Below are positions 42,201 through 52,985 of a stretch of 64,000 bases of DNA, piece after piece (within the stretch, counting starts at the first letter, position 1; the number at the start of each line of letters is the position of its first letter). This stretch comes from an uncultured Planctomycetia bacterium (GTDB taxonomy: Bacteria > Omnitrophota > Gorgyraeia > Tantalellales > Tantalellaceae), in contig CAZNEE010000001.1 of NCBI GenBank assembly GCA_964572255.1, positions 66,223 to 130,222 of the forward strand, written 5' to 3'. The translations under genes were made by a program, and so were the position numbers. The notes under the pieces are model-generated. The model searched no databases. It was not told the origin of the DNA and worked only from the letters and a program-made list of their open reading frames with translations.

Positions 42201-42617
42201 GATCTAAATAACATCAAGTTTATTGATAAACGCGGCCTTTCATATAAAGAATTAATATTGAAGATATCGTCAGAGGAAGGTATCACGCCTGACAATATAG
42301 GTATTAGAGCTTGTGAGGGAGAATTTGAAAAAGAAAGATCAGAATTCCGGTACGGAAAACTCCTGGAAGTCAAAGCAATAGACGCGGGCGGAGAGAAGGT
42401 ATATGTAGGTATTAATACATATCAAATACTGTTAAAGATACTGGTGAGCACGCAAAATACAGATGATATTTTCTATGACACAATTGATCTTCCGGGCGTT
42501 TCTTATGACGCTGGGAAGGGAATATTCACGTATTTACCGCGGTCTATTCCTATCGATTATCATAAAGAAATAAGGATCTACAGGAACGCGATGAGGATCA
42601 TAAATTCTGCCGCGTAA
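12219..42617 (+). CDS. Giant (10,132 aa) membrane-embedded modular protein. Order of parts: N-terminal TM anchor plus soluble region; four copies of a multi-TM domain (X0-X3); six HEAT/PBS-lyase-type repeat arrays, each closed by a conserved LEELEEAY...WKQDRMKKQ junction plus TM helix; a midasin-like cassette of six tandem AAA+ domains split by a membrane hairpin; an HETGH motif; a D/E/K-rich linker; a VWA/MIDAS domain; C-terminal TM helices and a tail.
   Basis: Single ORF in the track with no internal stops. Six Walker-A loops (GETGVGKTT, GPTGAAKTS, GESGVGKTS, GPTGSAKTS, GETGAGKTS, GLTGGGKSE), each followed by DGxL..A...G.W..LDE.NLA...(I/V)LER.NSLLDD and (I/V)HPNFR.FA.MNP...GR. A DESGSMG...VIVITDG MIDAS-type VWA signature. 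Dozens of D..VR..AA.ALG.IGD.RAVEPLI..L.D repeats. Confidence 0.85.
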   Translation: MFNINNNIITENNTRPLIMDWQSSRNKKWIRTIALIVIFCFTHQSIGWTENGTPVWTRSVNLPSNIAAKEEVFTSKGINGDKTIINIQDAHASLSAQESIVSVLDSLVSNYDLKLIAVEGSAGRIDTSLLRTFPDKEIRERSAYHLMKKGKMSAGEFFSITSDKEVALYGVEEKDLYRKNVDQFRGIYETNQVIQKDILNLISVLDVLKDNIYSQELKELENNSVLHEKGSITLKERWSFLGKLARRSGVSHKEKKNISKLVQCLELEEEIDFEKANSERSALIDILSKELSKEALEEFVLKSLSYKEGGITQGEYHLYLRNLMKEAGIPSVTYKDLNKFTDYIFLYESIDIISIFEEIKTFENEIKDKLFKNRDQRDLDAFSRYMETIRDLFEIRLVNSDFGYIVQNKDKFTASNLSEFIRNSSSKYGVRVKCDFDLARIFSGIPKALEFYRTVEERNSAILANTIKEMDEKGQSIAALITGGYHTRGLKELLKREETSYIVILPKFDDSEETKRPYIAILTNKKEPYQELLDSGRYYLATSAYCEGIIDLFKSSDSLEGDIREKYFELVDNYGEIFIHNVVMWVTGESDPDKAAGVFRRKFRSNPERIHKECADLIDSWSGSYKSFYDGCEDKELLISPEETKRFLEFLVEEKLGATRESKEEPVLLQGEEKDLQDESYVVRSVIERITSLGGDISDLDRACRILGVTPTPGIREEVLGQLGKMEGAEDAEVSPKEEISEPEEKTLIAEEAGTVEEDIRKTEPSKEKGYEEHAFTVRSAEKAIIVSILLSLLSFAGAVSLLIFNYTSLCYVVFCGLLSLAGVYFIFAAIRYFIIKEDVEERLTRRLVTLGLSEEEASKVVKHIAITHSSIDYYDHVGPQYGKLKEEQILPSKKIRDEFLPKDKEERNKYIAIFKEAALISFKNMHPDSVKNYNRVLLIKHESFSHIRGLLAITPISLHNAAIFGNALTFLSFIGIWIYLFVKDNISMPLAGGVIIAVLTLDIFTQLLIFIKTFIGLQSKFVEANTGLKVFSVSTILFLISFLVLISINPALFSWGVLLWAVITDLLLAGFLALYLTKSEEWHAVVIPVLTLLIGAGCIYHFKIKEAFLSTSELAAKAAFTREPDVKEETVFQILAHKDREEVIPEMVKNLNSNNRKLDNFSVQMLDVLKWEPESLREEVEYHVARRDEKRFQPLKDGMIGLLIDIVKREDADSGARLFSAMLLARECDKRVIEPVLDMWHKIGIISSSGLKEEYSLEADLKMLIENHGSIIYPHLKRFIVDEEWKKRDPEKSVIDSNWLRRQVIARVLAEINDPGTVDLLAIILEDNIDENRNIAVETLIRIGKPAISALKNILESSKFSKARESAAMILKTIGGEEAKAILLQARSDGSPRVRKAVADALNALGWAPGEEQEKIDHFIDNEYWDKIAEIGAPAIYLLERRLDSDDIQYRRRIIYALGNIKDPRAAEIILPLLYDDKSDIRISAADALGASGDKRAVEPLMELLGHSYSPVRGSAARALGKIRDIRAIKTLIKSLETEDKSDAKIEMISALKKFKDKSAKDILIKVLYDDEEGVKESAKKALRAILDMEGMLDELDQAYEGNDREKISTLEKLLTEVDKPALIQWKQDRMKKQAPTFKKYLTIGGIATLALAVLSVIFLVVRKLFKVKKVSGEKDDSTHAFTALSGFIGSGITALLSGGTFMGAVFAFGAGSMALNIIGSFAVIVGFYLGIAAMRYFFLGRATYTAMRDEKLPFKRSLTEPIARSDETQHKAFDHLKDKYKELIKKHEWHENHFIGMLGILLFPSITVSETAWTWDRRINIVRLKWVSIILSYISLAAIGIYAIPIADLVVLPGAAAVISAVLAVNLFMQLVIILKSYVEYGLFEPPVLVFPALAAASMLILNLVNPLFLFPATFWAIFTASIGATAFVSDSLRDRFTIAFAVLLFVLSFAVLPYKVWCAGKETDAVIKVGIEHFSRKKKLDPFAYQISANRKREEIIPKIVELLHNDKYSREFAVRMLEELKWEPQNIEEKVLYLATKERFDEIKLLGRPAIDIIVKGLTDKSSVSRKFSADILKKIEWEPKTQKEKLSYHIADKNWDVLAERGDIAIEQLRTCLEDEDREVRKGAAKVLDKLSWQAETQAEKITYSIAKEDQEMLIEIGAPAADDLIKMLKDKDPNARIFAIKVLEQIDDERVERLLTVRALEDEDENVSTAAGDTLKDMIDVAELLQRLDWAYEKDNRAKIKEIEDVLLRTDNKEALVKWKQDRMKKQALAFKKYLIVGGIATLALVVLSGLFLAVKKLFKVKRSGSTPKLPLIILFVLLSLFSARGIKAQEVPAPTPLPTPQEEIKTEKIPDVDALIEKLKDNDMDIRASAIKKLGEMKEVKAVDPLIEIVKKKCSRKIYIEKGLVESLTVEMPDGTKIICLPDDVACRVQAAKALGNICDKRAVDALIEALKDELSGEPRSSIITDLTLAEAHIGEALAKIGEPAIEPLKKALSEADHHTKRERIANILRKIESAKAAEALLESYKKEKEDPKWVYVNVYNGLIDIGRPAVEVLIKASKDEDIWIRRLALDVLGEIEIGTKEASEEAVDALINALKSGKNHSLDMGPAFINMSKKNTYVVDALIEALKDEDYSVRIDAASALSRICDQKAASPLLDAFLKEKDEIARQAIASALTEIKDPNAIEALKKALEDESSRVRAVAAWALERVDVMTPELKIIRYAKDLEDESVEVRVKAAKALSMMHGQKSKTALIKALCDEEEDVRKLAEKAAEMLETKLILEELEKAYDRDEDREKIIAIEKFIIKTNKPALNEWKRNRMKQRTSPFKKYLVWIGIGTLILVFLGGIAIAVKKVFKFKRSGKTPKLPLIILFVLLSVFSAKGVRAQEAPVPAPQEQEEVENEKEVDRLIKDLGDKDESIRNRAAKALGEIGGPKAIEALIKNMAVTHDLHGIKIVDPRACMDALVKIGEPAVKPLIKSLEDKDGTIRACAAAALDRLGVLTLEHKITKWSADLKDIDKKITVSEIREFDEIKDPDVRVDLLIAALIRGDGREQAEQSLKEINVMTPDILIKKLSHYLDSGNDIFRRGAAKELIKIEDPKVIDILVKMMGSKDEVVHDLAVEKLIEIEWQPKGPEEEVLYIDSLAEELKGYCTPEEQQLIFTALLKIGSKKAVKAIIEACGNEKQERSLYAIRVLVAIGPPAVDPLIEALESKSERIRKMAAKALEIIGDKRAAPGLIKMAKKAKDEEAYWESIDAIKALGGIGDASAVDFLTSVVENKKLGQIMRTEAAEALGKIGDPKAVDALLKAKNSKHYSLRIAAILALGEIGDPRPVEALIKEVGNTSMQNHSYEAIVALGNIGDPRAVEPLSKILDPEVYRSSYQKKAAFISLMQIGRPAAEILVPDWKKRYESFLYNLPREFKEELEMKRIKELALKFLTGSLKNEKTIMRKNAAEGLDDLEWKPATQEEKIIYCIAKEDWKALSETGEAAIPLLEEALRYEDPSISSSIAEILKKMEWKPEVQEEEIYYFIAKTDADALAKIGEPAVEALAELLESDYVSAQNFAKRLLKQFGTKVLLEQLEQAYAEGDREKINMLERRINLYDEEALIKWKRERLEKGAPPFWKYLAVAAGMFVFVLLGGMILAVGKVLKAKKAEKDNSTHAFRALSGFIAGGVTALLAGGVFRAAILTFGIGGLTFNIIGGLVLSIGIYSAIAAVRYFFLSKATYNAMRKEGLSFKDALIKPIAQSNSKTGALIVHKKAHDLLPDKYKKAIIMHESYKSHFIGMLAMPFSLIHDLLNQRVVSAITMINLYAMVIYEFIVWNTVSQLGLTIITAALAMNIGLQILVGIKMLIDRNKSGPDFVSLVWIAINCGFILLNCINPALLSPAVLLIFVMVAALSVTADIEKKADRIDAPVAFFIMMIGFFVVFLLGYGKLNMAFMDTPEMLDHAVHITDDQSSQNKNFYTVRRWVRKYWAAEILANRKEEEVVPELLKEMKGADQHARDIIFKVIKKIDWEPGTVEEKISYYTAKGDIEKLVSLREPAIGALLDILEDGTIENKAAAEEALGRIKVPKTVKVKAEKDEPTEKDPELAETTISGICPPAKSFSTLIQDLKSYKAGTRLDAAKALGDLGNRDAVPYLIEMLHWKIPYENDHLTPDWSPTKADVRKKALEVRSAVVEALGKLKDPRAVDHILSIATERSSSHGYILTETAVIALGKIGSPKAAKSIIETLADWSYKDISIEALVNIGKPAVPDLLEGIKTKGERSSYTRARDYSKNIRAFCAEALGRIQDERALKPLIKALRDGDRLVREHAAIGLGYLKDSKALQPLLNALKDKESDVRSAAAIALGRIEDERAFNALIKAYKTENKGYGEEESLVRAIGHFNNFLAINILASHAEEGTSDLNKFISERLVEIGEPAVKFLIRRINYDEARNILIKIGDPAIKPILEIFRNGDRQQRISAYTALKRMDNLPKGPFIEKLGHKDLLMREQSIEILTKLGWEPGTQEEKIYYYIANKDYDAVSKIGEPAVDVLIEALEYEDVGSRENAARILGELGSKRAVLPLANILEDKDLRNDVSAALRKIVKTSEALEELEEAYKVGDRERIDALEKILTEIDKPALVTWKQERMKKQVPAFKKYLTLGGISLLVLTLLGGVIAAIRKVSKVKKTKAEKDDSGHAFRALSGVAASGIALLFTGGAFVGVFYAWSAGGLVLNIAGGAALSFGIYLAVVSARYFFLGRATYIAMRDEKLSFKDALTIPIATANISRHRHKAYEGLSYKNKKLIDLHESYKSHFIGMLALMFSFIPGLVSSKAINRLTMISILSMTVYKLCVWNAASAFASGIITNLLVVHLAWQVLIFMRVIFEKFFGTSWGYLHEGSESFISLSMILVNGAFLYLGLLNPALLSPVVLFFALAVLMYANDDHQYRSSVIEFSFLPIVLFLVLGVSLFTKVKMASMDTVEVMKTAVQVKDVRNPRNMRYMMRRYWAAEVLANRKKEEVIPQLVSELNNENMDIREIAAEALYKLNWEPKNAEEEFLYHVAGRDIEKLSSLGKAATKPLLDILKEGNRDEKIAAAKAIGRIKDPETGPGLLDALKTASSKYYGDPKLEIVLIEAIGNIRFGKAVPLLLNELKEGNTAARKALVKIGEPAVEPLVKMLEHEKTVFKREKYEGILIEIGKPSAAVERLLEGGSFHNRESAAKILFKIGLYTKELRIKRCKADLKDENCSDIAKAKAEEALRKLGEVPEEGKTYKDIWDSEEARKEKIGKLIKDFESNDEKKQSAAVRELVRIGKPAVLDLIEALQENFAPVEQSAAKALAEIKDPRAIQPLFDKMENDDFDETRMVAAEALKQMGWEPKTDHEKAVYYIAIQAWDKLVEIGPAAVPKIIPRLKDDSPRVRINIINTLGRIKDPSVITRLIQSLRDEPINENVQWNKEHYAEVLGALKRALKAFGEEIVPHLKRELKEGNGKSKKWSIDILEDAGALSKTDLLEALKDEHYSVREFAVLALGRRNDPSVIDRLIEVFNAEKFEVKKFSKSGGFAVREAVVVALSDIGGEKAAGFLIKALKDKDWDVREKAATGLGKLEEKRAVRPLITALKDSNVDVRKQAAWALGQIGGKEAINALLGALEDDAKDVREAAKDALRKIVIAGEKLKELEEAYKKEDREKITEIEDILSIVNKDALEEWKQDRMKKEFPKFGKYLTVGGIIVFLFALISAFGIAVWKTIKKRKNLLLSILLAVTCAGAFYYLNEAFQFADEGGIFSLAGAPFFPVGGIITEGGIDPILAKEMTKFHKLMVKSAKKKIIGQDLRAPYEFTRRDRRRWANFINKYRSEMGITKAFIKGARYVYGDRMRTPDDEEKFIKIFKSLDLKAIADADPVDVDLEDLLKTGNIEYFTELIGSNPAALYSFCVRSDDDVVKEITDMISSEDIDAQKKGILSWAFLPDDVAEYLVAYGLHFDDHRLIEAAVRVAGRKKISNFNSQILKFSRNGDMELAASSLETLAETGDAEIASEVFKDLMTSGDQLFKIFKTRARVVALLGHDKDEYIEKFLRSLENSLGANFPQEARDVLVDAIVELGGRKIAENSLIAIQHAAAGSVRSDVNKVLLRLKQSQGMGKNDHLHFADQEVVELGKKLKGISRSISSGFRRALIENSARYQDFSENPEIFYRNGRSLQFIDTKLPINGRDEDKGFVPDESTTRIVPILRTVQDLEKIAQAAEMEDPLLLVGETGVGKTTLIRYLARLSNNNVRRFNLNGQTDKFEFIGGYKPEQYTLSRDQAYNVVEGLLKKETGHSKEEIVRAVRIISGQDKTCEQAKDILRQAFENKNSETISAIAEAVMNKSFEFKWHYGVLIEAMRRGHWLILDEINLAEPEIVERIRYLLDAHSHLKLSEYNNENWIDSRDYDEMVAKYIKKHERSGKDKETLTKEIVEDLTRQGIHRIHPNFRLFATMNPFGYEGRKELSAALMNKFNVKYIKQFEPDDIKGILKTKYNFSEDLLDKIISIHFGLTDVSGVGGMLGRNEGITYYYTIRHVFRLAERLKRDSENTGDTVIKDYLLQKEIIEIYGDGLRTEDDEKIFSSILYKVIPSSRFMKNDTSKKVTDNTEEGTVRIGDVVLPVNPDGGSLVPGEDSKLLLVKTTREWLEKIAKCILMDEKSLFIGPTGAAKTSMLRYIAHLTNNEFIRVNLDSYADTSDLIGKYIPKEDTKGELRWEDGVLIKAMEKGQWMLLDEFNLADPDILERINSLLDDDGALVVTEHNHERWVPHEKFDRLKAAGHDMSGLRRIHPNFRIFAAMNPERYAGRNRLSRAMMNKFNEKWISGYMSEDEIKHIAYFYATDGSIMEEEPLEGEIADQASAILSAVYLRVREMLEKNELGRGKISGINAEEYNFSLRDLKDWSKFVRKLHGEMGINRAIIEGALYVFRDRLEGIDDKGIFRDEILKRIIQIGNGHESVDIDRLDVLEEEGKSAEELITDVKVTDDDMNVLQRTEIAEIVDMFDNLCMNFPKYLHDDQGLNEIRRRLLTPGSEAAGIRGFALLPEDVAELLLDIVLDSVNPELLMAGCEVAGHLKIDSCNDKLLFLLKHDDFNVRAAAAFAIENVGLRFRDKDLGRPEKLEKKVLGKILLTEKEGGQSVGDYLGLKWIFRRLWIPCLGTMIPFLGLLFWMPLPYWQAAGGLLFSLSAVYIFSYIVLIKFAYPFIYGEQSEAIKKRYETLPLTLDDYYKLYEPGNRYKIKLPYHLKSKPVFGEDSKLRAYALPIFSMAGMVFAAFTGYGGYIGGFTTVSGMITLVIFEILMAVMGLFFSIGFFVLLTSWIATMGEVFSKPLMKRFLKGPEPEDDGFKITLPYSEGTIELFERYKQDQEAKRKALLSKGLAGEAKSPEDIIGVMKDEKIVIKDGKIIIDNIELDMKNSPEALVPDKEAAKLINTISAVRNMKKVAISLLLNEPALLVGESGVGKTSVVRYLASLVNWGFRRFNLNGQTEKTELIGGFRPDENGQFKWVDGILINAMREGSILVLDEINLAESQVLERINSLLDDDRHISIPEKDNMQWIDSRKYDLKVKEVTEKNKVTEEEAREILTEKKIFRIHPDFRLIATMNPVEYAGRNILSPALMNRFKVKWIDEMYSLERVAIFNNMFKNSAGGPLLDLNIVDRLDWLHTRIKDTAQARSIGEQEVDPYYYSIRDFIKLGFRIKEAIGKKERDEDRKLNREERTDIAIRESVLVYVDRIRDAEERNRLISVVEDFLGGFDTSGIEAAGISDTPDKVRIGDIVLDKNDGRGPYVPGKKSVLFDTPTTNRYLAKLAEMVHLNETPLMVGPTGSAKTSIVRYLSYLTKNNFVRVNLDAQTDTSEIIGSYIPVEDREGEFEWRDGLLVTALRKGYWVLLDELNLADPEILERINSLIDDEGCLIITEHEGEKIMSAKEYDRKVAEYVRGRKIVSDPRSEEELTLEAKEHLEKEKIYRVHPNFRLFTAMNPARYSGRNRLSLAMRNKLSEIWISGEMDEHEYKRIISGYLTDNPSKRKMVISMTEIHLGMLEVVNMLDEGTIDKYQFSMRDIKAWANYVNMYGPKIGWDEAFAKGAVYIYYDRLTKAEHRKEFMSFFSELLKEASYSKAYKHAVNFTARSISTKDKEKVTTRNNGFIDVLETTLEVNRSPISKELVPKEDVAKLIHTDSAMKDLEKVAQAAYLNEPSLLIGETGAGKTSLVRYLAHLTNNAFQRFNISGQTEKRDFIGGYHPDEDGKFVWKDGILIEAIKKGEWLVVDEINLAPSQVIERMNSLLDDDGFIVVTEHKGEKYIRQSEYDKKVDEYAYIIMQKEKCSMEEAVRKAKEELTKELVFPIHPNFRFFATMNPSEYAGRQVFSKALINRFRVKWIDIPDKEDVREILKEKYKGKLPQKIINKAIEVHYEMIEGSSGIDEDKVHYTIRHLIRWMERLVLGLEKEWDTDVNRLAFTEGAAIYGDGLPIEEDQEDSLSNEYGGIDNIQLLYNMLEEALEARFGKPQGEENIEITEDEDLVSFGEVSLPENKEERKFYVSGPELKNTGSMKRFLKRIARSVLAVENILLLGLTGGGKSELVRHLSDLTNNNFIAMDLDGQTDVSQLIGQYVPLEGEDRFQWVQGSLLEAMEHGAWILIDELNLAEPEIIERLNSLLDDDASLTVNEHKGEKWIPAKLYDELEANGHDMTYLKKIHENFKLFCAMNPAHYAGRTKMSKAMLNKFYQLWIPQEGTFEEEAEITVHYLDAEASFSDVSEEKLRMEGVIEKNTELAEAARYVNSSSLYLGMNGFGALAYIFDQIKSWRKKRKDDQNKKLELKSLNPQYLLEKSGEEEDEDMGWLKKIRMKRGDKKVNKILKNVSFMKEFYSGEFNTDIRPGAGWAIDLSTTPPTLIYPKKDLEERSADYICGVTMHETGHRDISFLVEKFFKKESTRFLLNAVEDPRVNNWGMVKVPGTKRYFKTMYDEDSPASGRISMADFSKVLPHIQFGLGIIHHWYSGKEHPYIKNPRVLEALQETRPAVTEAYSLLPGTIRVKRYDKERIVVDSSTGRKRFIPLPPVGHTVSVGKTDVQSVERVDEDTIIVTTRKESREISVPEEGGWETLLNNIKPSNDEKKAIAVKSAKIIEEKVLPAYEKLVQESIDQMKKQMSGQGSGQSGQEQDQPGQGGVEAQAEEEVEKQSKEFADDLEGKLPRGEEEKKEEMKKKREERWKKPQDEGKSKAGDKDEEKGEGGGGDEKTEEDKEGGDEKGEGAGEKDEEKDQKGVSSGGEDSAEDKNEVSSESSERSSGGEDKSRSDSAEEKRQKREPSEDGTKKESAADAEGEKQETAQEEDRSKGKPSPVDFGRRLTMKDRLKLDIKLREKIKVEHKDKYDKYYSQAIRLIERLFGTLDNELVKDKKPRYKGWFEAGKLRRMNKAMTMKKTGDMRIWERRSNPTKRSFKFSIVLDESGSMGMGHSESETSQDALKALVLFMEVLSRLDIDFSVIGFSDAPSVHKSLQESFKYKNKDELINEIIEYMGRGLGTYDAAAVNLAVNQLEQESSDSKVIIVITDGYGNGPVEVEKMIREARKKGIEVIGVGVGNGMQYVKSVYHPNATVRTMEELPGVIAKLLIDIIVYRKYTPIDHEEKNQPINAIKLSIASLVNIFAGIGSMFLTDLAPGSVLPWMLGIFSGACIASALIYLVTTMFIEMVFQIGRETAFRSEERKIARTVTYPDGTKRIETEPEFDKLPWIIRKFIIMHEKVHVAGFGEFMAYAFPWIGLFVKTSGKNKKSMIGGDPEIAIGIHKNVSDEVFTEIINILDEKVNIIVTESEEEFAEAIEDANFTGIFIDESITLDSIMTEKVRKDIYSIKLMKTYKGILKVNEISPETRDKIAETIKKIIPEIDKVDIDSVLGTAREIMAKDADLYKNIMSLQGLVAKRKNEIASVYNNMKMDEAVNYGGNLVVATTERIAEFDPFAFDNMQKTEGRSIVNYFIYGDNIKDIDEAKKFARASGYKGDLNNIKFIDKRGLSYKELILKISSEEGITPDNIGIRACEGEFEKERSEFRYGKLLEVKAIDAGGEKVYVGINTYQILLKILVSTQNTDDIFYDTIDLPGVSYDAGKGIFTYLPRSIPIDYHKEIRIYRNAMRIINSAA
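14520..15540 (+). other. Multi-TM domain X0, the first of four paralogous membrane domains (HAF...RYF...).
   Basis: Runs of hydrophobic helices beginning HAFTVRSAEKAIIVSILLSLLSFAGAV. Confidence 0.45.
17098..17190 (+). repeat. Intragenic nucleotide repeat: the WKQDRMKKQ-junction/TM segment, about 88% identical at nucleotide level to 19011-19103. Related copies lie near 20676, 23058, 26103 and 29291.
   Basis: Aligned by eye: tggaaacaggaccgcatgaaaaaacaggcgc...ggcggtatagctacgct versus tggaagcaggaccgcatgaaaaaacaggcgc...ggcggtatagctacgct. Confidence 0.7.
17240..18110 (+). other. Multi-TM domain X1 (KDDSTHAFTALSGF...HEWHENHFIGML...).
   Basis: Paralogous to 23200-24060 and 26250-27120. The nucleotide 17-mer cattttataggcatgct is shared by all three copies. 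Confidence 0.5.
19160..19240 (+). repeat. Intragenic nucleotide repeat encoding an internal signal-peptide-like segment (KLPLIILFVLLSLFSARGIKAQEVP), highly similar to 20822-20905 (KLPLIILFVLLSVFSAKGVRAQEAP).
   Basis: aaacttccgcttatcattttatttgtactgctttc...gcccaggaag versus aaactgccgcttatcattttattcgtattgctttc...gcccaggaag. Confidence 0.7.
23200..24060 (+). other. Multi-TM domain X2 (KDNSTHAFRALSGF...HESYKSHFIGML...).
   Basis: A 26-nt stretch (23565-23590) is identical to 26607-26632. Confidence 0.5.
26250..27120 (+). other. Multi-TM domain X3 (KDDSGHAFRALSGV...HESYKSHFIGML...).
   Basis: Paralogous to X1 and X2, with the same flanking junction before it and the same MASMDT...ANRKKEEVIP entry into the HEAT array after it. 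Confidence 0.5.
30850..31990 (+). other. AAA+ domain 1 of the midasin/MoxR-like (AAA_5-type) cassette.
   Basis: P-loop GETGVGKTT at 30918-30944; GVLIEAMRRGHWLILDEINLAEPEIVERIRYLLD; IHPNFRLFATMNPFGYEGRKELSAALMNKF. Confidence 0.65.
32150..33060 (+). other. AAA+ domain 2.
   Basis: P-loop GPTGAAKTS at 32214-32240; GVLIKAMEKGQWMLLDEFNLADPDILERINSLLDDDG; IHPNFRIFAAMNPERYAGRNRLSRAMMNKF. Confidence 0.65.
34520..35470 (+). other. AAA+ domain 3.
   Basis: P-loop GESGVGKTS at 34584-34610; GILINAMREGSILVLDEINLAESQVLERINSLLDDD; IHPDFRLIATMNPVEYAGRNILSPALMNRF. Confidence 0.65.
35620..36540 (+). other. AAA+ domain 4.
   Basis: P-loop GPTGSAKTS at 35679-35705; GLLVTALRKGYWVLLDELNLADPEILERINSLIDDEG; VHPNFRLFTAMNPARYSGRNRLSLAMRNKL. 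Confidence 0.65.
36760..37640 (+). other. AAA+ domain 5.
   Basis: P-loop GETGAGKTS at 36816-36842; GILIEAIKKGEWLVVDEINLAPSQVIERMNSLLDDDG; IHPNFRFFATMNPSEYAGRQVFSKALINRF. Confidence 0.65.
37870..38420 (+). other. AAA+ domain 6.
   Basis: P-loop GLTGGGKSE at 37926-37952; GSLLEAMEHGAWILIDELNLAEPEIIERLNSLLDDD; IHENFKLFCAMNPAHYAGRTKMSKAMLNKF. Confidence 0.6.
39660..40240 (+). other. D/E/K/G-rich low-complexity acidic linker between the AAA cassette and the VWA domain. It is analogous in position to the D/E-rich region of eukaryotic midasin.
   Basis: QGSGQSGQEQDQPGQGG...EEKKEEMKKKREERWKK...GDKDEEKGEGGGGDEKTEEDKEGGDEKGEG...SSERSSGGEDKSRSD read from the translation. Confidence 0.7.
40527..41050 (+). 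other. von Willebrand factor A (MIDAS) domain.
   Basis: FKFSIVLDESGSMG (DxSxS at 40548-40562)...DFSVIGFSD...KVIIVITDGYGNG...IEVIGVGVGNG. Confidence 0.65.
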
Positions 42618-43308
42618 TTACTTGCCTTTGCGTCAGTGTCGGAATCCCCGTTGATTTAATGTAGCTGATGTGTTTTTTGAATTCGTCTATATGCGTGAAG
42701 AAGCGGTAGGGAGCGTCCCTGTGAGCGCTTTTTGTGTTCTTGTCCGAGACAAGATGAAAAACTTCAATAAGCCACAGGTCTTTTTTACTTACTATTTCGA
42801 TGAGTTTCTCATATTCAGCCATAGGGATATCGGTCGTTATGCAGGTGCCCGTTATCGAATACGGGTCTTTCACGGGGAGTTCATTAAAAGCGAAACTTTC
42901 CGTCGATATTCTTGATGAGGTGTAATATTCAGACGCAAGGGTACGCAGAGATGAAGTCTGGTTATTCTTTATAAAAGGAAACACGAAGGATTCTATGCGG
43001 CCTCCGAACTTCTCTTTCAGGATATCTTTTGACCTCTTCATTTCGCTTTTTACCGCTTTCTCGCCTTCGGAGTTAAATACATCCAGCATGTTGCGGTGTG
43101 TTAAGCTATGAGCGGCTATCTCATGGCCGTTATTTACGAGATATTTTACGTCTTCTTCGCTTATTACATCTCTGTTCTCAAGTGTCTTACCTATATAGGA
43201 GGAGGGAATGGCAAAAGTGGCGGGGATACCATTTTCTGTCAGAAGTTCAGCACAGTGCTTAAAAGTGTCCTTATACCCGTCATCAAAAGCTATGGTTATG
43301 ATTCCCAT
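42598..43308 (-). CDS. Polysaccharide deacetylase (NodB homology domain / CE4 family), 236 aa. Its 3' end overlaps the stop of the giant ORF by 20 nt (convergent).
   Basis: ITIAFDDGYKD (TFDDG-type motif 1) and NGHEIAAHSLTH (HxxxH motif 2). An AAGGGGA Shine-Dalgarno-like sequence precedes the ATG on the minus strand. Confidence 0.85.
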   Translation of the reverse strand: MGIITIAFDDGYKDTFKHCAELLTENGIPATFAIPSSYIGKTLENRDVISEEDVKYLVNNGHEIAAHSLTHRNMLDVFNSEGEKAVKSEMKRSKDILKEKFGGRIESFVFPFIKNNQTSSLRTLASEYYTSSRISTESFAFNELPVKDPYSITGTCITTDIPMAEYEKLIEIVSKKDLWLIEVFHLVSDKNTKSAHRDAPYRFFTHIDEFKKHISYIKSTGIPTLTQRQVITRQNL

Positions 43309-47296: not shown

Positions 47297-47326
47297 TTGA
47301 CGCATCTCGCGAATATTTGGTAAAAT
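47297..47326 (+). promoter_or_regulatory. Sigma70-like promoter: TTGACG, 18-nt spacer, TAAAAT. Downstream there is a ggaaaacattttcc palindrome at about 47388-47401 and the RBS AAGGAGGTG.
   Basis: Hexamers read in the 152-nt gap before the 47428 ORF. Confidence 0.45.
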
Positions 47327-47427
47327 AATAGTTAATACACTTTTAAATTATCTCCACGATGTAAAATATCTTTAGGGTAGTACATAACAGGAAAACATTT
47401 TCCTTCCAAAAATAAGGAGGTGGCAGG

Positions 47428-50400
47428 ATGTCTACATCAAAAAAGCCTCTCTACAAGTTCATTTCAGTTCTGGTTACGATCACTTTTTTTATAAGTAATA
47501 TAAGTTGGGCAGTTCCGCCGGAGGGCGGAAGTTACACGCCTTTTGACGATAATCAGCAGCAAAGCGATTATCTCTCATCCGAACAGCTTCAGGAATACGC
47601 CGATGTAAAAACTTCCTTAATAGAGAAACACAATAGTGAAGCGCCTCAACCGCTATCCAACGAAGAAGAGGTAATACAATATCTTTACAGTCTGCTTGCG
47701 GCGGATGTGACGGCGAATCTCTCTCAGCTTGAGAATAATTATGATGCAAGTGTTTCCGGCAGACAATCCGTGCAGGCCGAGTATATAGAACTCCAGAACC
47801 TGCTTACAAGTTATTATCAGGAGGAGCAGAACGCAAGAGCCAATATCCAGAATGTAGACAATCAGATCGCGATCTACAACAGCAGAATAAGCGCTATCGA
47901 AGAGGAAAAAGAAAGGGTGCAGGGACTTATCAGCGACATTGACTCAGAGATCGGGACGAAAGAAGCCAGCATGCCGTCTTTGATCGATACCGTTGGAATA
48001 CTCCAGAGCGATCTTACGGATCTTCTTGTTTCTCTCAACGGGAAAGAAACAGAACTGGGAACGGCACAAAATCTTCTTGTTGCCGCTCAAAGTGAATATG
48101 ATGACGCGTTAGCGGTGGTGCATGCGGAGCTTGGCGACAATTTTGATGTTCATTCTCCTGACGTTGAAAAAGTTTATGATGGCGAAGGAAATCTTACAGA
48201 AGTCATTCTTCCCGCGGAGTACCAGATATTGCCGGATATTGACCAGATCGAATTACATGTCCTGGACGCTCTATTAAGATACGACGATCTTGAGGCGGCG
48301 CAGAATGTAGTTGATCAAAAAGAGGCTGAACGGGACCAGGCGAGTACCCTTTATTATGATAAACAGTCAGAACTTCTCTCAACGTGCGAAAGAGCAAAGT
48401 TGATAGAGTTTGATATTTCAGTTCTAAATGAGATAAAAGATACGAGAACGGCCCAGTATGATGACTTGGTGAGTGCATCTGTTGGAATAAATAATAGCAT
48501 TACGGGCCTTCAAGATCTGAGAAATGATCTTGAAGCCCAGCTTCTTTTAAGTCAGGAACAAATAGAGACAGAAGTTCCCGGGATCATCGACGCGATAAAC
48601 GAAACAGGAGAGATCCTGCAATCGGCGATCGGAAGAGAAGAGGAAGCGAAGTCGCTTTACGAGGAAGCTTTGGAAGCTATTAAAAGCAGCGTGGATGAAC
48701 TAATAGTTTCCGATGAAGAAGTGCGGTCAGGGATACTTTCAGCTTTGATCGGTCGCGAAGAGGGCGAAACAGAACAAGAGTATCTTCAAAGAATAGAGAA
48801 CATGACGGATCAGGAAATTGATGAGTACATGTTCTACGCGCAGGATCGGCTGGTTCTTATCAACGGGAAAATAGTCGATTCGGAAGAAGTAAACAGAGTC
48901 ATCATCAGGGATATTTTAAGGGAGAATTTCAAGAAAATATTCGGGAAAGAGCCGGGCGATAATTTATTGAATGTAATGCGTGATATCATTTTCAGGGTCA
49001 AGATCCCCGCGATAAGAGTGTTTGAGGTTATCAGCAGGATCGAGAACAGTAAAATCGAAGCCACTGAAAAAGATGAAAAACTTGAGGATGAAAAGGATGA
49101 AAAAGATGCGGCCCGAAGCGAAATTGATCAACTGCTGGAAGCCGCGATCATAGAAGATATGATCAGCGATATTCTCGGAGAAGAGAATGAGGATCTCCTT
49201 AACAGGATAGTGGATAGATTGACCGCGCAGGGATTAGGTCCAACATTATTAAATGACACCATAGGTTATTTAAGTTCGATCCCGACGGGTCTTGTTTCCT
49301 GCGGGGCTATTGCGCTTTCCGGGTTATTTAACAGTATCGGAATGGATCTTTCTGTCGCAGGAATAACAGAGGAAGCCGTTCTTACCGATGTCATTGAGGG
49401 ATCCATGAAAGCAGGCGAAAGCGGGCTTAATCTTTCTCTCTTTGCGCTCAAGGAAACCGCCGCAGATCATGGATTAGAGCTTTACGGCCAAAAAATTGAT
49501 CCCGAAAATATTGTAAATATAGAGGGGCCTTTTGTAGCCCATGTTAACGATAATCATTATGTTCTTGTGAAAAATATTGAAGAGGATAGGGTTGCATTTT
49601 TTGATCCGGATCCTTACAGGGATAACACTTCAAGTTTACAGGAATTCAGCGAAAGTTTTACAGGCTATGCTCTAACCCTCGCCGATACAGAGGGGGCAAC
49701 ATCGCTTGAGGATAGCCAGATGAAAGAAGTTCTCGGTGCCGGATGGTTCTCAAGAGCGGTAAGTAAGGTAAAAAGCGCGGTGAAGAGCGCTGTCAAGAAA
49801 GTTTCGAGCGCGGCAAAAAGCGTAGCCAAAAAGGTATCAAGCGCAGCAAAGAGCGTCGCCAGCAAGGTATCAAGTGCTGCGAAAAGCGTGGCAAGCAAAG
49901 CGAAAAGCGCGGTAAAGAGCGTTGCCAGCAAAGTTTCAAGCGCCGCAAAGAGCGTTTCTAATAAAGCAAAGAGCACTTACAATAAAGCCAAGAGCAAAGT
50001 TTCAGAAACATATAACGCCGCAAAAGATAAAGTTACAGAAAAATGTAGTGAAGTAAAAGCAGAAGTTACAAATTGGATAAGCGAAACGAAAGAAGAGGTT
50101 TCTAATTGGATAAGCGAGAAGAAGGGGACTGTTAATTCTATGATAGAAAGCGGCAAAGAAAAAGTATCAGCCATGTGGACTACCGTGAAGGAAAAATATG
50201 CTAAGGCGAAAGAAACTTACGAAAATTACAAAAAGGAACAAGCTGAAAAGGCCAAAGAGAAGTCCAATCAGGAAGGCGAAAAATCCTTTATTAATTCTCT
50301 TGTGGATTTCTTAACGATCATCCCCAGGGTTAGCGCAACCGCAGATATTGAAACTACTGTAGCCGAAGATCCCTCTCTTTCAGGTGATAATGTATTTGGA

Positions 50401-52926
50401 GTCCAGACCTACGGGGTTCAAGATCCCCAAGTTTGCTCTATTGATAATCCTGAATACATGGCTTACCTGGAGGCATTTAATAACAGCCTGGAAAGCAGCA
50501 ATCTAAGTTCGAATAATGTTAAAACGGTTGTAATTATAAATGAGGATAATACAGCTACGATATACACAATTCAGTTACCGCCTGAAGCGGTTCAGAATAA
50601 TTCAGAACGTGAAGTTGCGTATACTGCTCAAGGTAATGCCGATTCTATTGAAAAAGATCAAGTAACAATTTTAGACCTGAGAGATCAAACTGTTTCTGTA
50701 GTTTCTTTTGAAACTCAAAAAGATTCATCATTTTCACCGTTTATTCCCGTTGAAGGAACCTCTAAAGGGCTCTCAATGGCTCAACTTAATCTTCCAAGCT
50801 ATATTACAGAACAGGATCTTCTTAACGCGCTTCCTGAGTCTATCGATCAGGTCCATCTTCCCGGAGGACAAATACCCACGGAAGGAGTGACTATCGATAT
50901 AGGCGGCGGGATCATCAGCAGGAACAAAGATGCCATAAATGTAGATGCCCGTGCGATAGCCAGCGGGGATAATGCGTTTATCAGAACTACGGGAGCGACC
51001 GGTTCACATCTTGAGATACCTGAAGTTCTGGAATACTTAAATAGCAGGGGAGTCAAGGCTGATAAAATATTTCTTGAAAATGTGCCTTGGGATGATGTTC
51101 AAACTCCCCGTATCTTGGATGCGAGCGGAGAACTTTTGAAATCGGGCAGCGGGACCATGCAAATTGTTCTTCCTCCGACTGTAGATGCTGATAGGTTTGT
51201 TGCTCAGTTCGCTGATTCAATAGACGGAACTTTTTCAGGGCCTGTAATAGGCGATCTTGTTCCGGTAAAAACAGACCTTCCCTCGGGAGTAAAAGTCAGT
51301 TATCCGGATGCTAAAATTTACACGGTAACGAAGACACAAAGCAACTTCCTGCTCGATGCGATCGATGATTTTAGGGGCATGTCCCGCTTGGGGAAAGGGC
51401 TAGTCATTGCTGATATTGCGATTTCAACCTATGATATTGGAAGCGGTATACATAAAGATGCGACAGAAGGGTTTGATTGTCATTCGACCGAAGCGGTCGG
51501 TCGTGTAGCCGCCGGCTCATATGGCGCCTTTAAGTGCGCTGCTTTGGCCAGTCCATTAAGCCCATTGGCTTCGTTCATAGCAGGCGCTGCCTGCGGTATA
51601 GTTGGCGGCTGGCTAGGAGGTGAAATTGGAAGGAGCCCCTGCGATACTCCTGAAATTTATATTCCAAATCAAGGGACCATGATAATCAACGATCCTATGG
51701 ACCTGTCGTCATATTTCAGTGCAAATCAGATAAAAAACAACCATCTGGACATACCGCTGGATCCTGATGTTATAGGGGAAAGAAAATCTATACCCGGTGA
51801 AACTGTTACTTATACAGACATGGGTCCGGATTTTCTGCCGGGTTTTACTTCTTATACGTATTCCACATGGTCAGGTGCCGAAGGCAGCAAAGAACCGCAA
51901 GTAACCGCGGCCGATGTTCTTAAAGCTATAGATGCAGCTAATAACAGTTCTGGCAGCACAGCTATTCCCGAAACGATATTTTATCAGCCTCCCCAGATAC
52001 CGTTCCCATCAGTTTCAAATATTTCACTAAACGATAATATATCAGAAGTAACTTCGGAAAATGCGACAGTTGATATCGGCGCTGATTCTGATGGGGTAAA
52101 ATCTTCAAAAGTTGTAAATTTTATGAAAAAAATGGCGGTCACCACATTAGGGCCGGTTTATACTGCCGCCAAAATCGTTCAAAGTGTTTGTAATTGGGCG
52201 ACAGGGTATCCGGAGAGATACTCAAAAAGGTATCTGGAATCGCGTGAATTAGGCTCATCAGAAGGCATAGCTAATCTTGAAGCTTTTGCGTATGCAGCAG
52301 GCGGCCATATAATCGAAGAGGCATCACGAAATGCACAGGAAAGGTATAAGACAAGAAGGGACGTGCAAATTGATGCCGGTCGTCCGCCGCTCGGTGCTAA
52401 AATTTTTGCCGGCTTTCAAACTGTAGGTGATTTTACAGGATGGACAAAAGCTGCCAGCGCGATAAACGGGAGAGATTCAGTCACTTATCAGCCGATAAGC
52501 AGTGAGGAAAGAATACAGCTTGGCATTGAAGGGGCTGTGGAATCCGCTTTTTCCGTTTTTGCTTTGGCAAAAGCGGGGCAAGTCGCAAAAGGGGCATGGC
52601 AGAACAAGGGAAATCTTTTTAAGATGGGCAAGAAGGGTCAGTTTTATGGAGGAAAACCCAAAGCATCTCCGAAAGTGACCCGGAAAGTTGATGTTAATAT
52701 TGGCGGAAAAAAGACTAAAGCGATCATTGTTTCAAAAGATGTAAATCATCCCTTTCAGCCCCACGTGCATTTTACGAATAAGGGACAAAGTGTTAAGATC
52801 AATTTTAAGAGCATGCCGGAACTTAAGGTAAAACTGAAAGATGCCGGATTTGGCAAATTGCTTAAGGACGGGAATTTTCTTTCACAGGCTGAAGAAGTTC
52901 TTCTTAAGGCCGGATATATTTCCTAA
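47428..52926 (+). CDS. Large (1,832 aa) secreted or membrane-anchored protein: N-terminal signal/TM, long coiled-coil region, putative C39-like papain-fold peptidase domain, Lys/Ser/Ala-rich 11-aa tandem repeats, and a C-terminal ~880-aa domain of unknown function.
   Basis: KKPLYKFISVLVTITFFISNISWAVPPEG (signal/TM); heptad-like Q/E/L-rich stretches from 47700 to 48650; VSCGAIALSGLF and GPFVAHVNDNHYVLVKNIEEDRVAFFDPD (C39-like Cys and His/Asp elements); (KKVSSAAKSVA)n. Confidence 0.85.
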   Translation: MSTSKKPLYKFISVLVTITFFISNISWAVPPEGGSYTPFDDNQQQSDYLSSEQLQEYADVKTSLIEKHNSEAPQPLSNEEEVIQYLYSLLAADVTANLSQLENNYDASVSGRQSVQAEYIELQNLLTSYYQEEQNARANIQNVDNQIAIYNSRISAIEEEKERVQGLISDIDSEIGTKEASMPSLIDTVGILQSDLTDLLVSLNGKETELGTAQNLLVAAQSEYDDALAVVHAELGDNFDVHSPDVEKVYDGEGNLTEVILPAEYQILPDIDQIELHVLDALLRYDDLEAAQNVVDQKEAERDQASTLYYDKQSELLSTCERAKLIEFDISVLNEIKDTRTAQYDDLVSASVGINNSITGLQDLRNDLEAQLLLSQEQIETEVPGIIDAINETGEILQSAIGREEEAKSLYEEALEAIKSSVDELIVSDEEVRSGILSALIGREEGETEQEYLQRIENMTDQEIDEYMFYAQDRLVLINGKIVDSEEVNRVIIRDILRENFKKIFGKEPGDNLLNVMRDIIFRVKIPAIRVFEVISRIENSKIEATEKDEKLEDEKDEKDAARSEIDQLLEAAIIEDMISDILGEENEDLLNRIVDRLTAQGLGPTLLNDTIGYLSSIPTGLVSCGAIALSGLFNSIGMDLSVAGITEEAVLTDVIEGSMKAGESGLNLSLFALKETAADHGLELYGQKIDPENIVNIEGPFVAHVNDNHYVLVKNIEEDRVAFFDPDPYRDNTSSLQEFSESFTGYALTLADTEGATSLEDSQMKEVLGAGWFSRAVSKVKSAVKSAVKKVSSAAKSVAKKVSSAAKSVASKVSSAAKSVASKAKSAVKSVASKVSSAAKSVSNKAKSTYNKAKSKVSETYNAAKDKVTEKCSEVKAEVTNWISETKEEVSNWISEKKGTVNSMIESGKEKVSAMWTTVKEKYAKAKETYENYKKEQAEKAKEKSNQEGEKSFINSLVDFLTIIPRVSATADIETTVAEDPSLSGDNVFGVQTYGVQDPQVCSIDNPEYMAYLEAFNNSLESSNLSSNNVKTVVIINEDNTATIYTIQLPPEAVQNNSEREVAYTAQGNADSIEKDQVTILDLRDQTVSVVSFETQKDSSFSPFIPVEGTSKGLSMAQLNLPSYITEQDLLNALPESIDQVHLPGGQIPTEGVTIDIGGGIISRNKDAINVDARAIASGDNAFIRTTGATGSHLEIPEVLEYLNSRGVKADKIFLENVPWDDVQTPRILDASGELLKSGSGTMQIVLPPTVDADRFVAQFADSIDGTFSGPVIGDLVPVKTDLPSGVKVSYPDAKIYTVTKTQSNFLLDAIDDFRGMSRLGKGLVIADIAISTYDIGSGIHKDATEGFDCHSTEAVGRVAAGSYGAFKCAALASPLSPLASFIAGAACGIVGGWLGGEIGRSPCDTPEIYIPNQGTMIINDPMDLSSYFSANQIKNNHLDIPLDPDVIGERKSIPGETVTYTDMGPDFLPGFTSYTYSTWSGAEGSKEPQVTAADVLKAIDAANNSSGSTAIPETIFYQPPQIPFPSVSNISLNDNISEVTSENATVDIGADSDGVKSSKVVNFMKKMAVTTLGPVYTAAKIVQSVCNWATGYPERYSKRYLESRELGSSEGIANLEAFAYAAGGHIIEEASRNAQERYKTRRDVQIDAGRPPLGAKIFAGFQTVGDFTGWTKAASAINGRDSVTYQPISSEERIQLGIEGAVESAFSVFALAKAGQVAKGAWQNKGNLFKMGKKGQFYGGKPKASPKVTRKVDVNIGGKKTKAIIVSKDVNHPFQPHVHFTNKGQSVKINFKSMPELKVKLKDAGFGKLLKDGNFLSQAEEVLLKAGYIS
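49250..49640 (+). other. Putative peptidase C39-like (bacteriocin-processing, papain-fold) domain.
   Basis: The Cys in a CG.A context at about 49301 and the HYVLV...DPD strand at about 49552-49610 fit the C39 pattern CGxA...HyVVl..i..d.v.i.DP. Confidence 0.45.
49765..49965 (+). repeat. Tandem 33-nt (11-aa) repeats, about 5-6 units, encoding K-(K/S)-V-S-S-A-A-K-S-V-A.
   Basis: Units start at about 49798, 49831, 49864, 49897 and 49930. The spurious minus-strand ORF 49665-49976 (LFALLETLFAALETLL...) is the mirror image of this repeat. Confidence 0.7.
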
Positions 52927-52947: not shown

Positions 52948-52985
52948 AAGGGGGCAGATAATATTATCTGCCCCCTTATTATACC
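52948..52985 (+). terminator. Rho-independent terminator candidate downstream of the 1,832-aa gene.
   Basis: Perfect hairpin aagggggcagataat / attatctgccccctt (52948-52978) followed by an A/T-rich tail (attatacctt). Confidence 0.55.

Follow-up and report, generated by a model that had tools for sequence, protein, structure and literature searches.

C39 peptidases are textbook partners of ATP-binding cassette (ABC) exporters. In the structure of LahT, the catalytic Cys stands at the start of a helix and the His and Asp on consecutive strands, and the double-glycine leaders follow the consensus Leu(-12)-X3-Glu(-8)-Leu(-7)...Val(-4)...Gly-Ala, which bind with residues -4, -7 and -12 in a hydrophobic groove and with a two-turn helix at residues -4 to -11 (PMC6363468). 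Experiments on StbD, a CdiA-CT C39 toxin of Citrobacter rodentium, showed that it processes itself in cis, at a Gly-Gly site beside the domain (bioRxiv 10.64898/2026.05.07.723447), and releasing peptidases, pre-toxin domains and a Tox-PL-C39 toxin domain have been described in polymorphic toxin systems (Zhang et al., 2012; PMC3482391). In the Omnitrophota, C39 domains were found near the signal peptides of giant proteins and were proposed to cleave those proteins (West-Roberts et al., 2023; bioRxiv 10.1101/2023.11.21.568195), and a 2026 complete-genome preprint reports a C39 architecture cluster among the long proteins of this phylum. Here we analyse a gene for a protein of 1,832 residues, located in a 64,000-nt stretch of contig CAZNEE010000001.1 (hereafter the window), which combines a C39 peptidase domain, predicted to be exported, with a conserved double-glycine-type motif immediately downstream of it.

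Sequence profiles and a structural model together confirm that this protein contains a C39 domain with a papain-like fold, outside any ABC transporter. Pfam PF03412 matched the whole protein with 48.8 bits (E=8e-13) and the excised segment with 55.3 bits (E=7.8e-15), for a gathering score of 22, and it also matched two relatives, P0003 (50.8 bits) and P0004 (43.8 bits). The alignment to the hidden Markov model covered profile positions 40-131 only, the half with the His and Asp, and therefore the Cys needed separate proof. Cys625, contained in VSCGAIAL, aligned with the CG motif of other C39 proteins, while His710 and Asp726, contained in NHYVLV...FFDPD, aligned with H96 and D112 of ComA; the Cys-His and His-Asp spacings are 85 and 16 residues, compared with 79 and 16 in ComA. 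These three residues are invariant in all four full-length sequences (the protein itself, P0002, P0003 and P0004). In the AlphaFold2 (AF2) model of the domain (pTM 0.79, mean pLDDT 80.8), a helix (625-636) begins with Cys625, His710 starts a strand (710-718) and Asp726 ends another (721-726), the same arrangement as in LahT. The best Foldseek matches of the model were ComA-PEP, LahT150 and PCAT1 (E values 1.4e-6 to 6e-6), covering the whole domain, with TM-scores of 0.68-0.76 over about 144 aligned columns for the isolated peptidase-domain structures (ComA-PEP, LahT150); StbD (8ssk) and the C39-like domain (CLD) of HlyB (3zua, 7sgr) were also among the matches. No ABC_membrane or ABC_tran match was found in the 1,832 residues, and NCBIfam transporter models scored 26-35 bits, for cut-offs of 500-853, through the peptidase part only. 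An earlier note on this DNA had proposed a C39-like peptidase signature, had looked to a papain-like fold at this segment and had placed the domain outside an ABC-transporter context; all three hold, the last also at the level of the locus, which has no transporter nearby.

What that note did not contain, and what we report from the alignments as a new finding, is a conserved double-glycine-type motif just after the peptidase (Table 1). Its consensus in the relatives is L760-x3-[QE]-M-K-x-[VI]-x-G770-A771, with L-EDS-Q-M-K-E-V-L-G-A in our protein, LEDSEMKGVFGA in P0002, LSDEEMKGIHGA in P0003 and LSENEMKNIYGA in P0004. Among the four full-length sequences, which represent three lineages, the L, M, K, G and A do not change, whereas the linker just upstream does. 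The motif lies 20 residues past the last C39 strand (F[TS]GxxL), a spacing that is fixed in five of six proteins (partly by manual count), and each full-length protein contains a single instance of the strict pattern, in this place every time, with about 0.09 occurrences expected per shuffled protein. In the AF2 model, residues 760-769 reach a pLDDT of about 94 and form a helix at 762-766, in agreement with the helix of a bound leader (PMC6363468). If the cut is placed after Gly-Ala, the register becomes Leu-12, Glu/Gln-8, Met-7, Val/Ile-4, Gly-2 and Ala-1. Considering the conservation of the motif, its placement and its register on the leader consensus, we therefore propose self-processing after A771, and we infer from sequence and model that this predicted cleavage would free a payload of about 1,061 residues. 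The same motif follows the domain in two small Omnitrophota C39 proteins, at 20 residues in P0010 and at 28 in P0011, the latter heading an open reading frame (ORF) of more than 2,438 aa. At this last locus (L009), the frame of P0011 (1-743; C39, GA motif and a Gly-rich hydrophobic segment) ends with MKIVASAA and the next ORF (801-8113, more than 2,438 aa) starts with KIVASAAS; the two are probably one giant gene split by a frameshift or an assembly duplication. Text searches of the literature retrieved no description of a double-glycine site beside Omnitrophota C39 domains.

The peptidase domains of ABC transporter maturation and secretion (AMS) proteins and peptidase-containing ABC transporters (PCAT), that is, ComA-PEP, LahT150 and PCAT1 (MEROPS C39), have the same fold as the domain described here, with the triad on equivalent secondary-structure elements. 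Their substrates share the motif register (Leu-12, Glu/Gln-8, Leu/Met-7, Val/Ile-4, Gly-2, Ala-1), with the cargo C-terminal to the cut. In contrast, AMS/PCAT peptidases belong to an ABC transporter and are cytoplasmic, whereas this C39 domain is not fused to an ABC transporter, has none as a neighbour and stands behind a predicted signal peptide. Moreover, our protein holds enzyme and motif in one polypeptide, with a 'leader' of 771 residues and a 'cargo' of about 1,061, and has no Gln before the Cys. The long and giant C39 proteins of the Omnitrophota share the phylum-level setting, with C39 behind an N-terminal signal or transmembrane segment, and the combination of C39 and GA motif also heads the ORF of more than 2,438 aa mentioned above. 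Our protein differs from these giants in its length of only 1,832 aa, in the approximately 580 helical residues between signal peptide and C39, and in having no glycosyl hydrolase, dockerin or SecA-like domains.

Our preferred reading, to which we give about an even chance, is that of a Sec-exported, self-processing modular effector whose C39 domain cuts its own site at A771 to free a membrane-targeting, toxin-like half. The protein would be exported via Sec, and after export the C39 domain (Cys625, His710, Asp726) would recognise the motif 20 residues downstream and cut behind A771. The cut could be made in cis or, if the N-terminal helical regions hold several copies together as an oligomer, in trans, and the first 771 residues would serve as a giant 'leader' with a protease of its own. 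In the freed payload, the repeats would form a cationic amphipathic 11/3 helix resting on anionic membrane surfaces, followed by the methyltransferase-fold domain, by a disulfide-bracketed hydrophobic helix with a glycine zipper that would insert into membranes and, at the end, by a PT-TG-like pre-toxin module and a small basic tip exchangeable between lineages. The role would likely be an attack on, or manipulation of, the envelope of another cell (prey, host or competitor). In this reading, the cut and its course in cis or in trans, the action on membranes, the choice of target and enzymatic activity in the methyltransferase-like domain or in the tip, if any, are inferred.

Table 1. Features of the 1,832-residue protein and of its gene (coordinates in the window)
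Feature	Coordinates	Strand	Basis or remark
ORF, 1,832 aa	47428-52926	+	Real; predicted exported protein
Sigma-70-like promoter candidate, TTGACG-18-TAAAAT with extended TG	47297..47326	+	Best-scoring + strand site of the region
Ribosome-binding site AAGGAGG	47414..47420	+	7 nt before the ATG; read directly from the sequence
Signal peptide (residues 1-28, predicted cleavage between SWA and VP) or N-in signal anchor	47428..47511	+	Rule-based
Acidic, Pro/Gly-poor helical region, residues 29-611, possible coiled coil	47512..49260	+	Conserved in this protein, P0003 and P0004
Peptidase C39 domain, residues ~612-752	49261..49683	+	Pfam PF03412, AF2, Foldseek
Catalytic candidates Cys625, His710, Asp726	49300-49302, 49555-49557, 49603-49605	+	Alignment and AF2
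Double-glycine-type motif L760-EDS-Q-M-K-E-V-L-G770-A771, predicted scissile bond A771/G772	49705..49740	+	Conservation and consensus
Amphipathic Lys/Ser/Ala/Val repeats of 11 residues, about 14 in a single register, residues 772-925	49741..50202	+	Periodicity
Class-I methyltransferase-like Rossmann domain, residues ~1122-1302	50791..51333	+	Fold only
Hydrophobic helix and glycine-zipper-like segment, residues 1316-1405, with Cys1351 and Cys1405	51373..51642	+	Hydropathy, relatives
PT-TG-like pre-toxin module, residues 1575-1722	52150..52593	+	Conservation with P0003 ends here
Lineage-specific basic C-terminal tip, residues 1723-1832, plus stop codon	52594..52926	+	No match but P0002
Terminator-like perfect 26-nt hairpin GGGGGCAGATAAT/ATTATCTGCCCCC, then TTATTATA	52950..52975	+	Read by eye, after the stop codon

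Members of this family are very rare: three proteins, one of them (P0001) the protein's own sequence, were retrieved from 5.8 billion clusters, and a search of 1.84 billion representatives with the C-terminal half retrieved seven matches; the reference-genome scan added two loci and the metagenome scan one, all from lineages already found. One locus (L005) is labelled Candidatus Omnitrophota, P0011 Omnitrophota and another locus (L004) Planctomycetia, and the taxon of the family, and of the window as judged from these relatives only, is probably Omnitrophota, of the Planctomycetes-Verrucomicrobia-Chlamydiae (PVC) group. Our protein and P0003 are conserved to about residue 1722 and wholly divergent beyond it. 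The gene of P0004 is complete and ends behind the Gly-zipper region, with neither PT-TG module nor tip. The only part present in P0005-P0008 is the core of methyltransferase-like domain and Gly zipper, in most cases (P0005-P0007) together with repeat tracts, and P0005 is a complete gene of 952 aa without a C39 domain. Therefore, the distribution of the modules over P0003-P0008 indicates that the core payload is ancient in the group, with the PT-TG module and the tip as additions to it. The homologue in L004, a reference metagenome-assembled genome (MAG), is split into two overlapping ORFs (2229-5126 and 4744-8910), and the change of frame, inside the Ser-rich repeat tract, could reflect an assembly error or repeat-mediated frameshifting.

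The N-terminus of the protein, read by rules, appears to us to be a Sec signal peptide, with a basic n-region (MSTSKKPLYK), a 15-residue hydrophobic core and a terminal SWA followed by VP, with small residues at -3 and -1. Kyte-Doolittle hydropathy exceeds 1.5 in two segments only, this signal-like segment and residues 1374-1398, and the same N-terminal pattern is present in P0003, P0004 and P0005, in agreement with the signal peptide or N-terminal anchor assigned previously. The signal-like segments of our protein, P0003, P0004, P0005 and a 10,132-aa ORF of the window share a terminal [IL]-[SGAC]-W-[ATP] (ISWA, IGWA, IAWP, LCWA and IGWT, respectively), a pattern that may be a lineage-typical cleavage or sorting motif. 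The helical region includes a conserved YTPFD..QQQS motif after the signal peptide, and it is acidic and poor in Pro and Gly over residues 29-590. Heptad periodicity rises above the 99th percentile of the shuffles only around residues 379-420, and residues ~80-245 are weakly lamin-coil-like (E 0.009-0.17). The approximately 300 residues of coiled coil claimed in the earlier note are, on these two signals, a possible coiled coil.

Beyond the predicted cut, the protein was described previously as a tract of degenerate Lys-rich tandem repeats, a separate K/E-rich stretch with a short direct repeat, and a single C-terminal domain of about 880 aa. The tandem repeat is recovered at the DNA level, with a period of 33 nt, 5.8 copies and 68% matches (49765-49956). 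In contrast, the stretch with the direct repeat is not a separate element, since 'TNWISE...SNWISE' belongs to the same array of 11-mers (residues 772-925), and the C-terminal part divides into at least four modules. The hydrophobic periodicity of the repeats is 3.67 residues (power 111, with a shuffle 99th percentile of 55), and the basic helical tract runs on past them to about residue 950; Ser-rich versions of the repeats are found in P0003-P0007. An Ala/Val face flanked by Lys is typical of helices lying on membrane surfaces. When the consensus SAAKSVAKKVS is placed by hand on an 11/3 helix, it displays an Ala/Val face with Lys at the polar/apolar boundary, and the repeats would, in our reading, lie on a membrane surface. 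They match the Apolipoprotein A1/A4/E family weakly (28 bits, under the gathering score), and share with the 11-mer lipid binders of that type the 3.67 periodicity and the boundary Lys.

No match above the cut-off was obtained with Pfam or NCBIfam families in the C-terminal 880 aa, in line with the absence of recognisable motifs noted before. In particular, a search for a housekeeping family in this part retrieved none, and the likeness to methyltransferases is at the level of the fold, with no sequence-family match. The region contains D1157-IGGG, N1218-V-P1220 at a strand end and L1237-x-x-G, and both D1157 and N1218-V-P1220 are invariant across eight relatives; the DIGGG-like motif I is present, and the acidic residue of INVD is not conserved in P0006-P0008. 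The AF2 model has a pLDDT of about 75-89 over residues ~1123-1272, and all of the top 50 PDB matches in Foldseek were methyltransferases dependent on S-adenosylmethionine (E 1e-4 to 5e-3). No methyltransferase Pfam family was found in the eight members, and a PDB profile search with this region gave noise only.

The segment that follows carries the second hydropathy peak of the protein, at residues 1374-1398. The Gly-zipper families PF13488 and PF13441 match four of the eight relatives, with best E values of 5.9e-6 and 1.4e-5, close to the gathering score. These relatives resemble the glycine-zipper proteins (Gly-zipper_Omp/YMGG) in their GxxxG-rich hydrophobic segments (E ~1e-5 to 1e-6). Cys1351 and Cys1405 are both present in six sequences and both absent in two; therefore, their joint presence or absence suggests a disulfide and an extracytoplasmic location. 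Compared with the glycine-zipper and apolipoprotein types, our protein remains under the Pfam thresholds and has each of the two elements embedded in a far larger, multidomain polypeptide, and its membrane activity is predicted from sequence.

At the C-terminus, the relationship to polymorphic toxins, or to surface effectors, that the earlier note had proposed stands in part. The body is shared to about residue 1722 and the tips diverge beyond it, and PT-TG (PF14449) is the sole Pfam match of the module before the tip, with 15.0-20.6 bits (17.7 in our protein, 20.6 in P0002). A profile search for PT-TG gave no matches, a weak negative because the same tool had also missed the protein's own family; the modules of P0003, searched singly, gave no PT-TG match. 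The tip is basic (net charge of +14 over residues 1701-1800) and has no Pfam or PDB match. An exhaustive phmmer search of the C-terminal 879 aa among the 1.84 billion representatives retrieved no homologue of the tip besides that of P0002. The latter protein, 92% identical to ours, has the same tip at 96% identity, and therefore tip replacement is seen only between distant lineages, with no within-species polymorphism. The tip of P0003 is weakly ParB/Srx-like (E 0.05-0.1) and unrelated to that of our protein. The part of the proposal that did not stand concerns the genes expected around such a toxin: the search for neighbouring immunity-like small ORFs found none in the downstream gap, and no orphan tips or PT-TG copies were found in any fetched locus. 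In the absence of an immunity gene, of orphan cassettes and of a tip swap between close relatives, the protein is therefore polymorphic-toxin-like and not a demonstrated member of these systems. It shares with them (PMC3482391) the general layout of a secretion signal, a long structural region, an internal peptidase, a pre-toxin-like module and, between distant lineages, a variable tip; in contrast, those systems have immunity genes or orphan cassettes, known toxin tips and RHS or haemagglutinin repeats, where the region of our protein is helical, and C39 appears there among the toxin domains, not among the releasing peptidases that are illustrated.

Two observations on P0003 concern the same part of the family. 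This protein contains three PT-TG-like copies, two of them full-length (residues ~1035-1170, ~1290-1390 and ~1880-2040; positions 13361-13720 and 15623-16021 of its locus, L002), and copies one and three each precede a similar 'VTY.P...G.ETY..T.P...ATYS' segment, which looks like an internal duplication of the pre-toxin unit. In L002, the homologue is followed by a gene for a protein of 198 aa with about four predicted transmembrane segments (16712-17308) and by one for a protein of 881 aa without a Pfam match (17455-20100), and the same pair is found in the syntenic MAG locus L004 (9043-9675 and 9822-12467). The 198-aa membrane protein beside P0003 is a candidate immunity protein.

Canonical C39 domains act in the reducing cytoplasm, whereas the one described here is predicted to be exported. 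This is the first of several observations that weigh against the reading of a self-processing, membrane-targeting effector. The Gln that precedes the Cys by about six residues, and that is proposed to form the oxyanion hole, is absent (..IPTGLVSC.., with Pro/Thr across the aligned lineages), but the need for this Gln has been questioned by the LahT structure (PMC6363468). At the putative cleavage site, position -8 of our protein is Gln instead of Glu, and the high pLDDT at residues 760-769 could stem from conservation alone. In the payload, the Foldseek TM-scores to methyltransferases are weak (0.24-0.46) and the model has no usual helix after motif I, the glycine-zipper segment of our protein is itself under the Pfam thresholds, the PT-TG scores are below the gathering score of 23.5, and no known toxin domain was found in the protein. 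The surroundings of the gene raise similar objections: the 168-bp downstream gap before the hexapeptide-transferase gene has no immunity gene (ORFs of at most 38 aa), and in the neighbourhood covered by the window no secretion partner or ABC transporter was found, only housekeeping genes.

Several of these observations would be expected of a non-toxic surface or envelope protein (an adhesin, an attachment fibre or an envelope organiser) that is matured by C39 and whose C-terminus varies with its attachment partners. The missing immunity gene and recognised toxin domain, the long helical N-terminal region, the housekeeping neighbours, which include glmM- and hexapeptide-transferase-type cell-wall precursor genes, and the complete P0004 without PT-TG or tip are all compatible with such a protein, and attachment to hosts or prey has been suggested for the Omnitrophota (PMC10066038). 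However, PT-TG is all that Pfam matches in the module before the tip, the tip of P0003 is similar to the ParB/Srx fold found in known toxins, and the pairing of a glycine zipper with cationic amphipathic repeats fits a membrane-active protein better; we thus consider a surface protein unlikely, though worth keeping in view.

The C39 domain could instead be the effector itself, a toxin of the Tox-PL-C39 type that cleaves Gly-Gly sites in proteins of the target cell, with the motif as an autoinhibitory pseudo-substrate or as a protease-freeing site as in StbD. Tox-PL-C39 is listed among the toxin domains of polymorphic toxins (PMC3482391); in addition, the C39 domain of StbD cleaves GyrB and ParE and auto-processes at the adjacent GG site, and StbD was among the structural matches of our domain. 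Both proteins have a C39 domain in a large secreted toxin-type protein and a Gly-Gly-type site in an adjacent linker. In StbD (PDB 8ssk/8ssm), however, the site is upstream and the C39 domain, at the C-terminus, is the toxin against which a cognate immunity protein exists; delivery is by contact-dependent inhibition and a type V secretion system (CDI/T5SS). Our protein has the site downstream of an internal C39 domain, no delivery by CDI/T5SS and no immunity gene. Toxin domains are normally C-terminal, and this one lies mid-protein, before about 1,060 conserved payload residues and the PT-TG-like module; a cut at the downstream motif would leave the protease on the N-terminal region. Furthermore, P0005-P0008 keep the payload, P0005 (complete, 952 aa) does so without C39, and no immunity gene is found in the downstream gap. 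The idea of C39 as the toxin therefore seems improbable to us.

A catalytically inert domain in the style of the RTX-transporter CLD, which would bind the leader-like helix as an intramolecular clamp or chaperone, is highly improbable: non-cleaving, substrate-binding C39-like domains do exist, the HlyB CLD (3zua, 7sgr) is among the structural matches and the usual Gln before the Cys is absent, but inactive CLDs have no catalytic Cys, whereas Cys625, His710 and Asp726 are invariant across lineages only 45-49% identical in the region, and a small-residue Gly-Ala pair is conserved exactly at the expected cleavage point.

If the protein is indeed a self-processing effector, the presence of an enzyme and a textbook-like substrate motif in one exported polypeptide would offer a simple model for the processing of large secreted proteins in uncultivated Omnitrophota, on which the literature so far holds only speculation. 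More tentatively, and with doubt prevailing, C39 with a downstream double-glycine site at fixed spacing might be a general self-release cassette of the Omnitrophota, giant proteins included, and the payload described here might be an undescribed membrane-inserting effector of predation or parasitism, with its cationic 11-mer array, methyltransferase fold with invariant NVP, disulfide-clamped glycine zipper and exchangeable tip. This payload represents a very rare family without annotated function, and it may belong to the machinery of these ultra-small bacteria against prey or hosts. A sequence-specific self-cleaving module could also serve as a tool in protein engineering.

The expression signals of the gene agree with the promoter and terminator of its own that the earlier note had assigned to it (Table 1). 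The promoter lies about 100 nt 5' of the ATG and is a candidate only, because the count of sigma-70-like sites is no higher than in shuffles. The hairpin after the stop codon was not listed by the consensus terminator scan, probably because its loop is too short. The gene is located between polX-ligA upstream and the hexapeptide-transferase/glmM-type pair of cell-wall precursor genes downstream, and the genes further downstream in the window (CofD, GH57, PtsI, nucleotidyl transferase, MetK) are all of the housekeeping type. An origin as a mobile or foreign island was considered and rejected, since GC content and GC skew are uniform with the flanks.

Further upstream in the window lie three other ORFs on the + strand. 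The first (128-10390; 3,420 aa) has an ABC1 atypical-kinase-like domain (residues 665-872) as its sole Pfam match, and it is overlapped by a 548-aa ORF (10356-12002) with a signal-like N-terminus and no Pfam match. The third (12219-42617) is the 10,132-aa ORF mentioned above, with a transmembrane or signal-like N-terminal segment (WIRTIALIVIFCFTHQSIGW) and, in the first 4,000 residues, which were scanned, dense HEAT/ARM repeats (HEAT_2 E=6e-141). A link between the 1,832-aa protein and these giant ORFs was rejected, as BLASTP found no shared domain, and the scanned parts of the giants contain no C39 domain. Throughout the window, ORFs with a Pfam match or longer than 500 aa are on the + strand with one exception, a polysaccharide deacetylase on the - strand (42598-43308), and the GC skew is positive in each 2-kb bin, so that the cumulative skew climbs monotonically.

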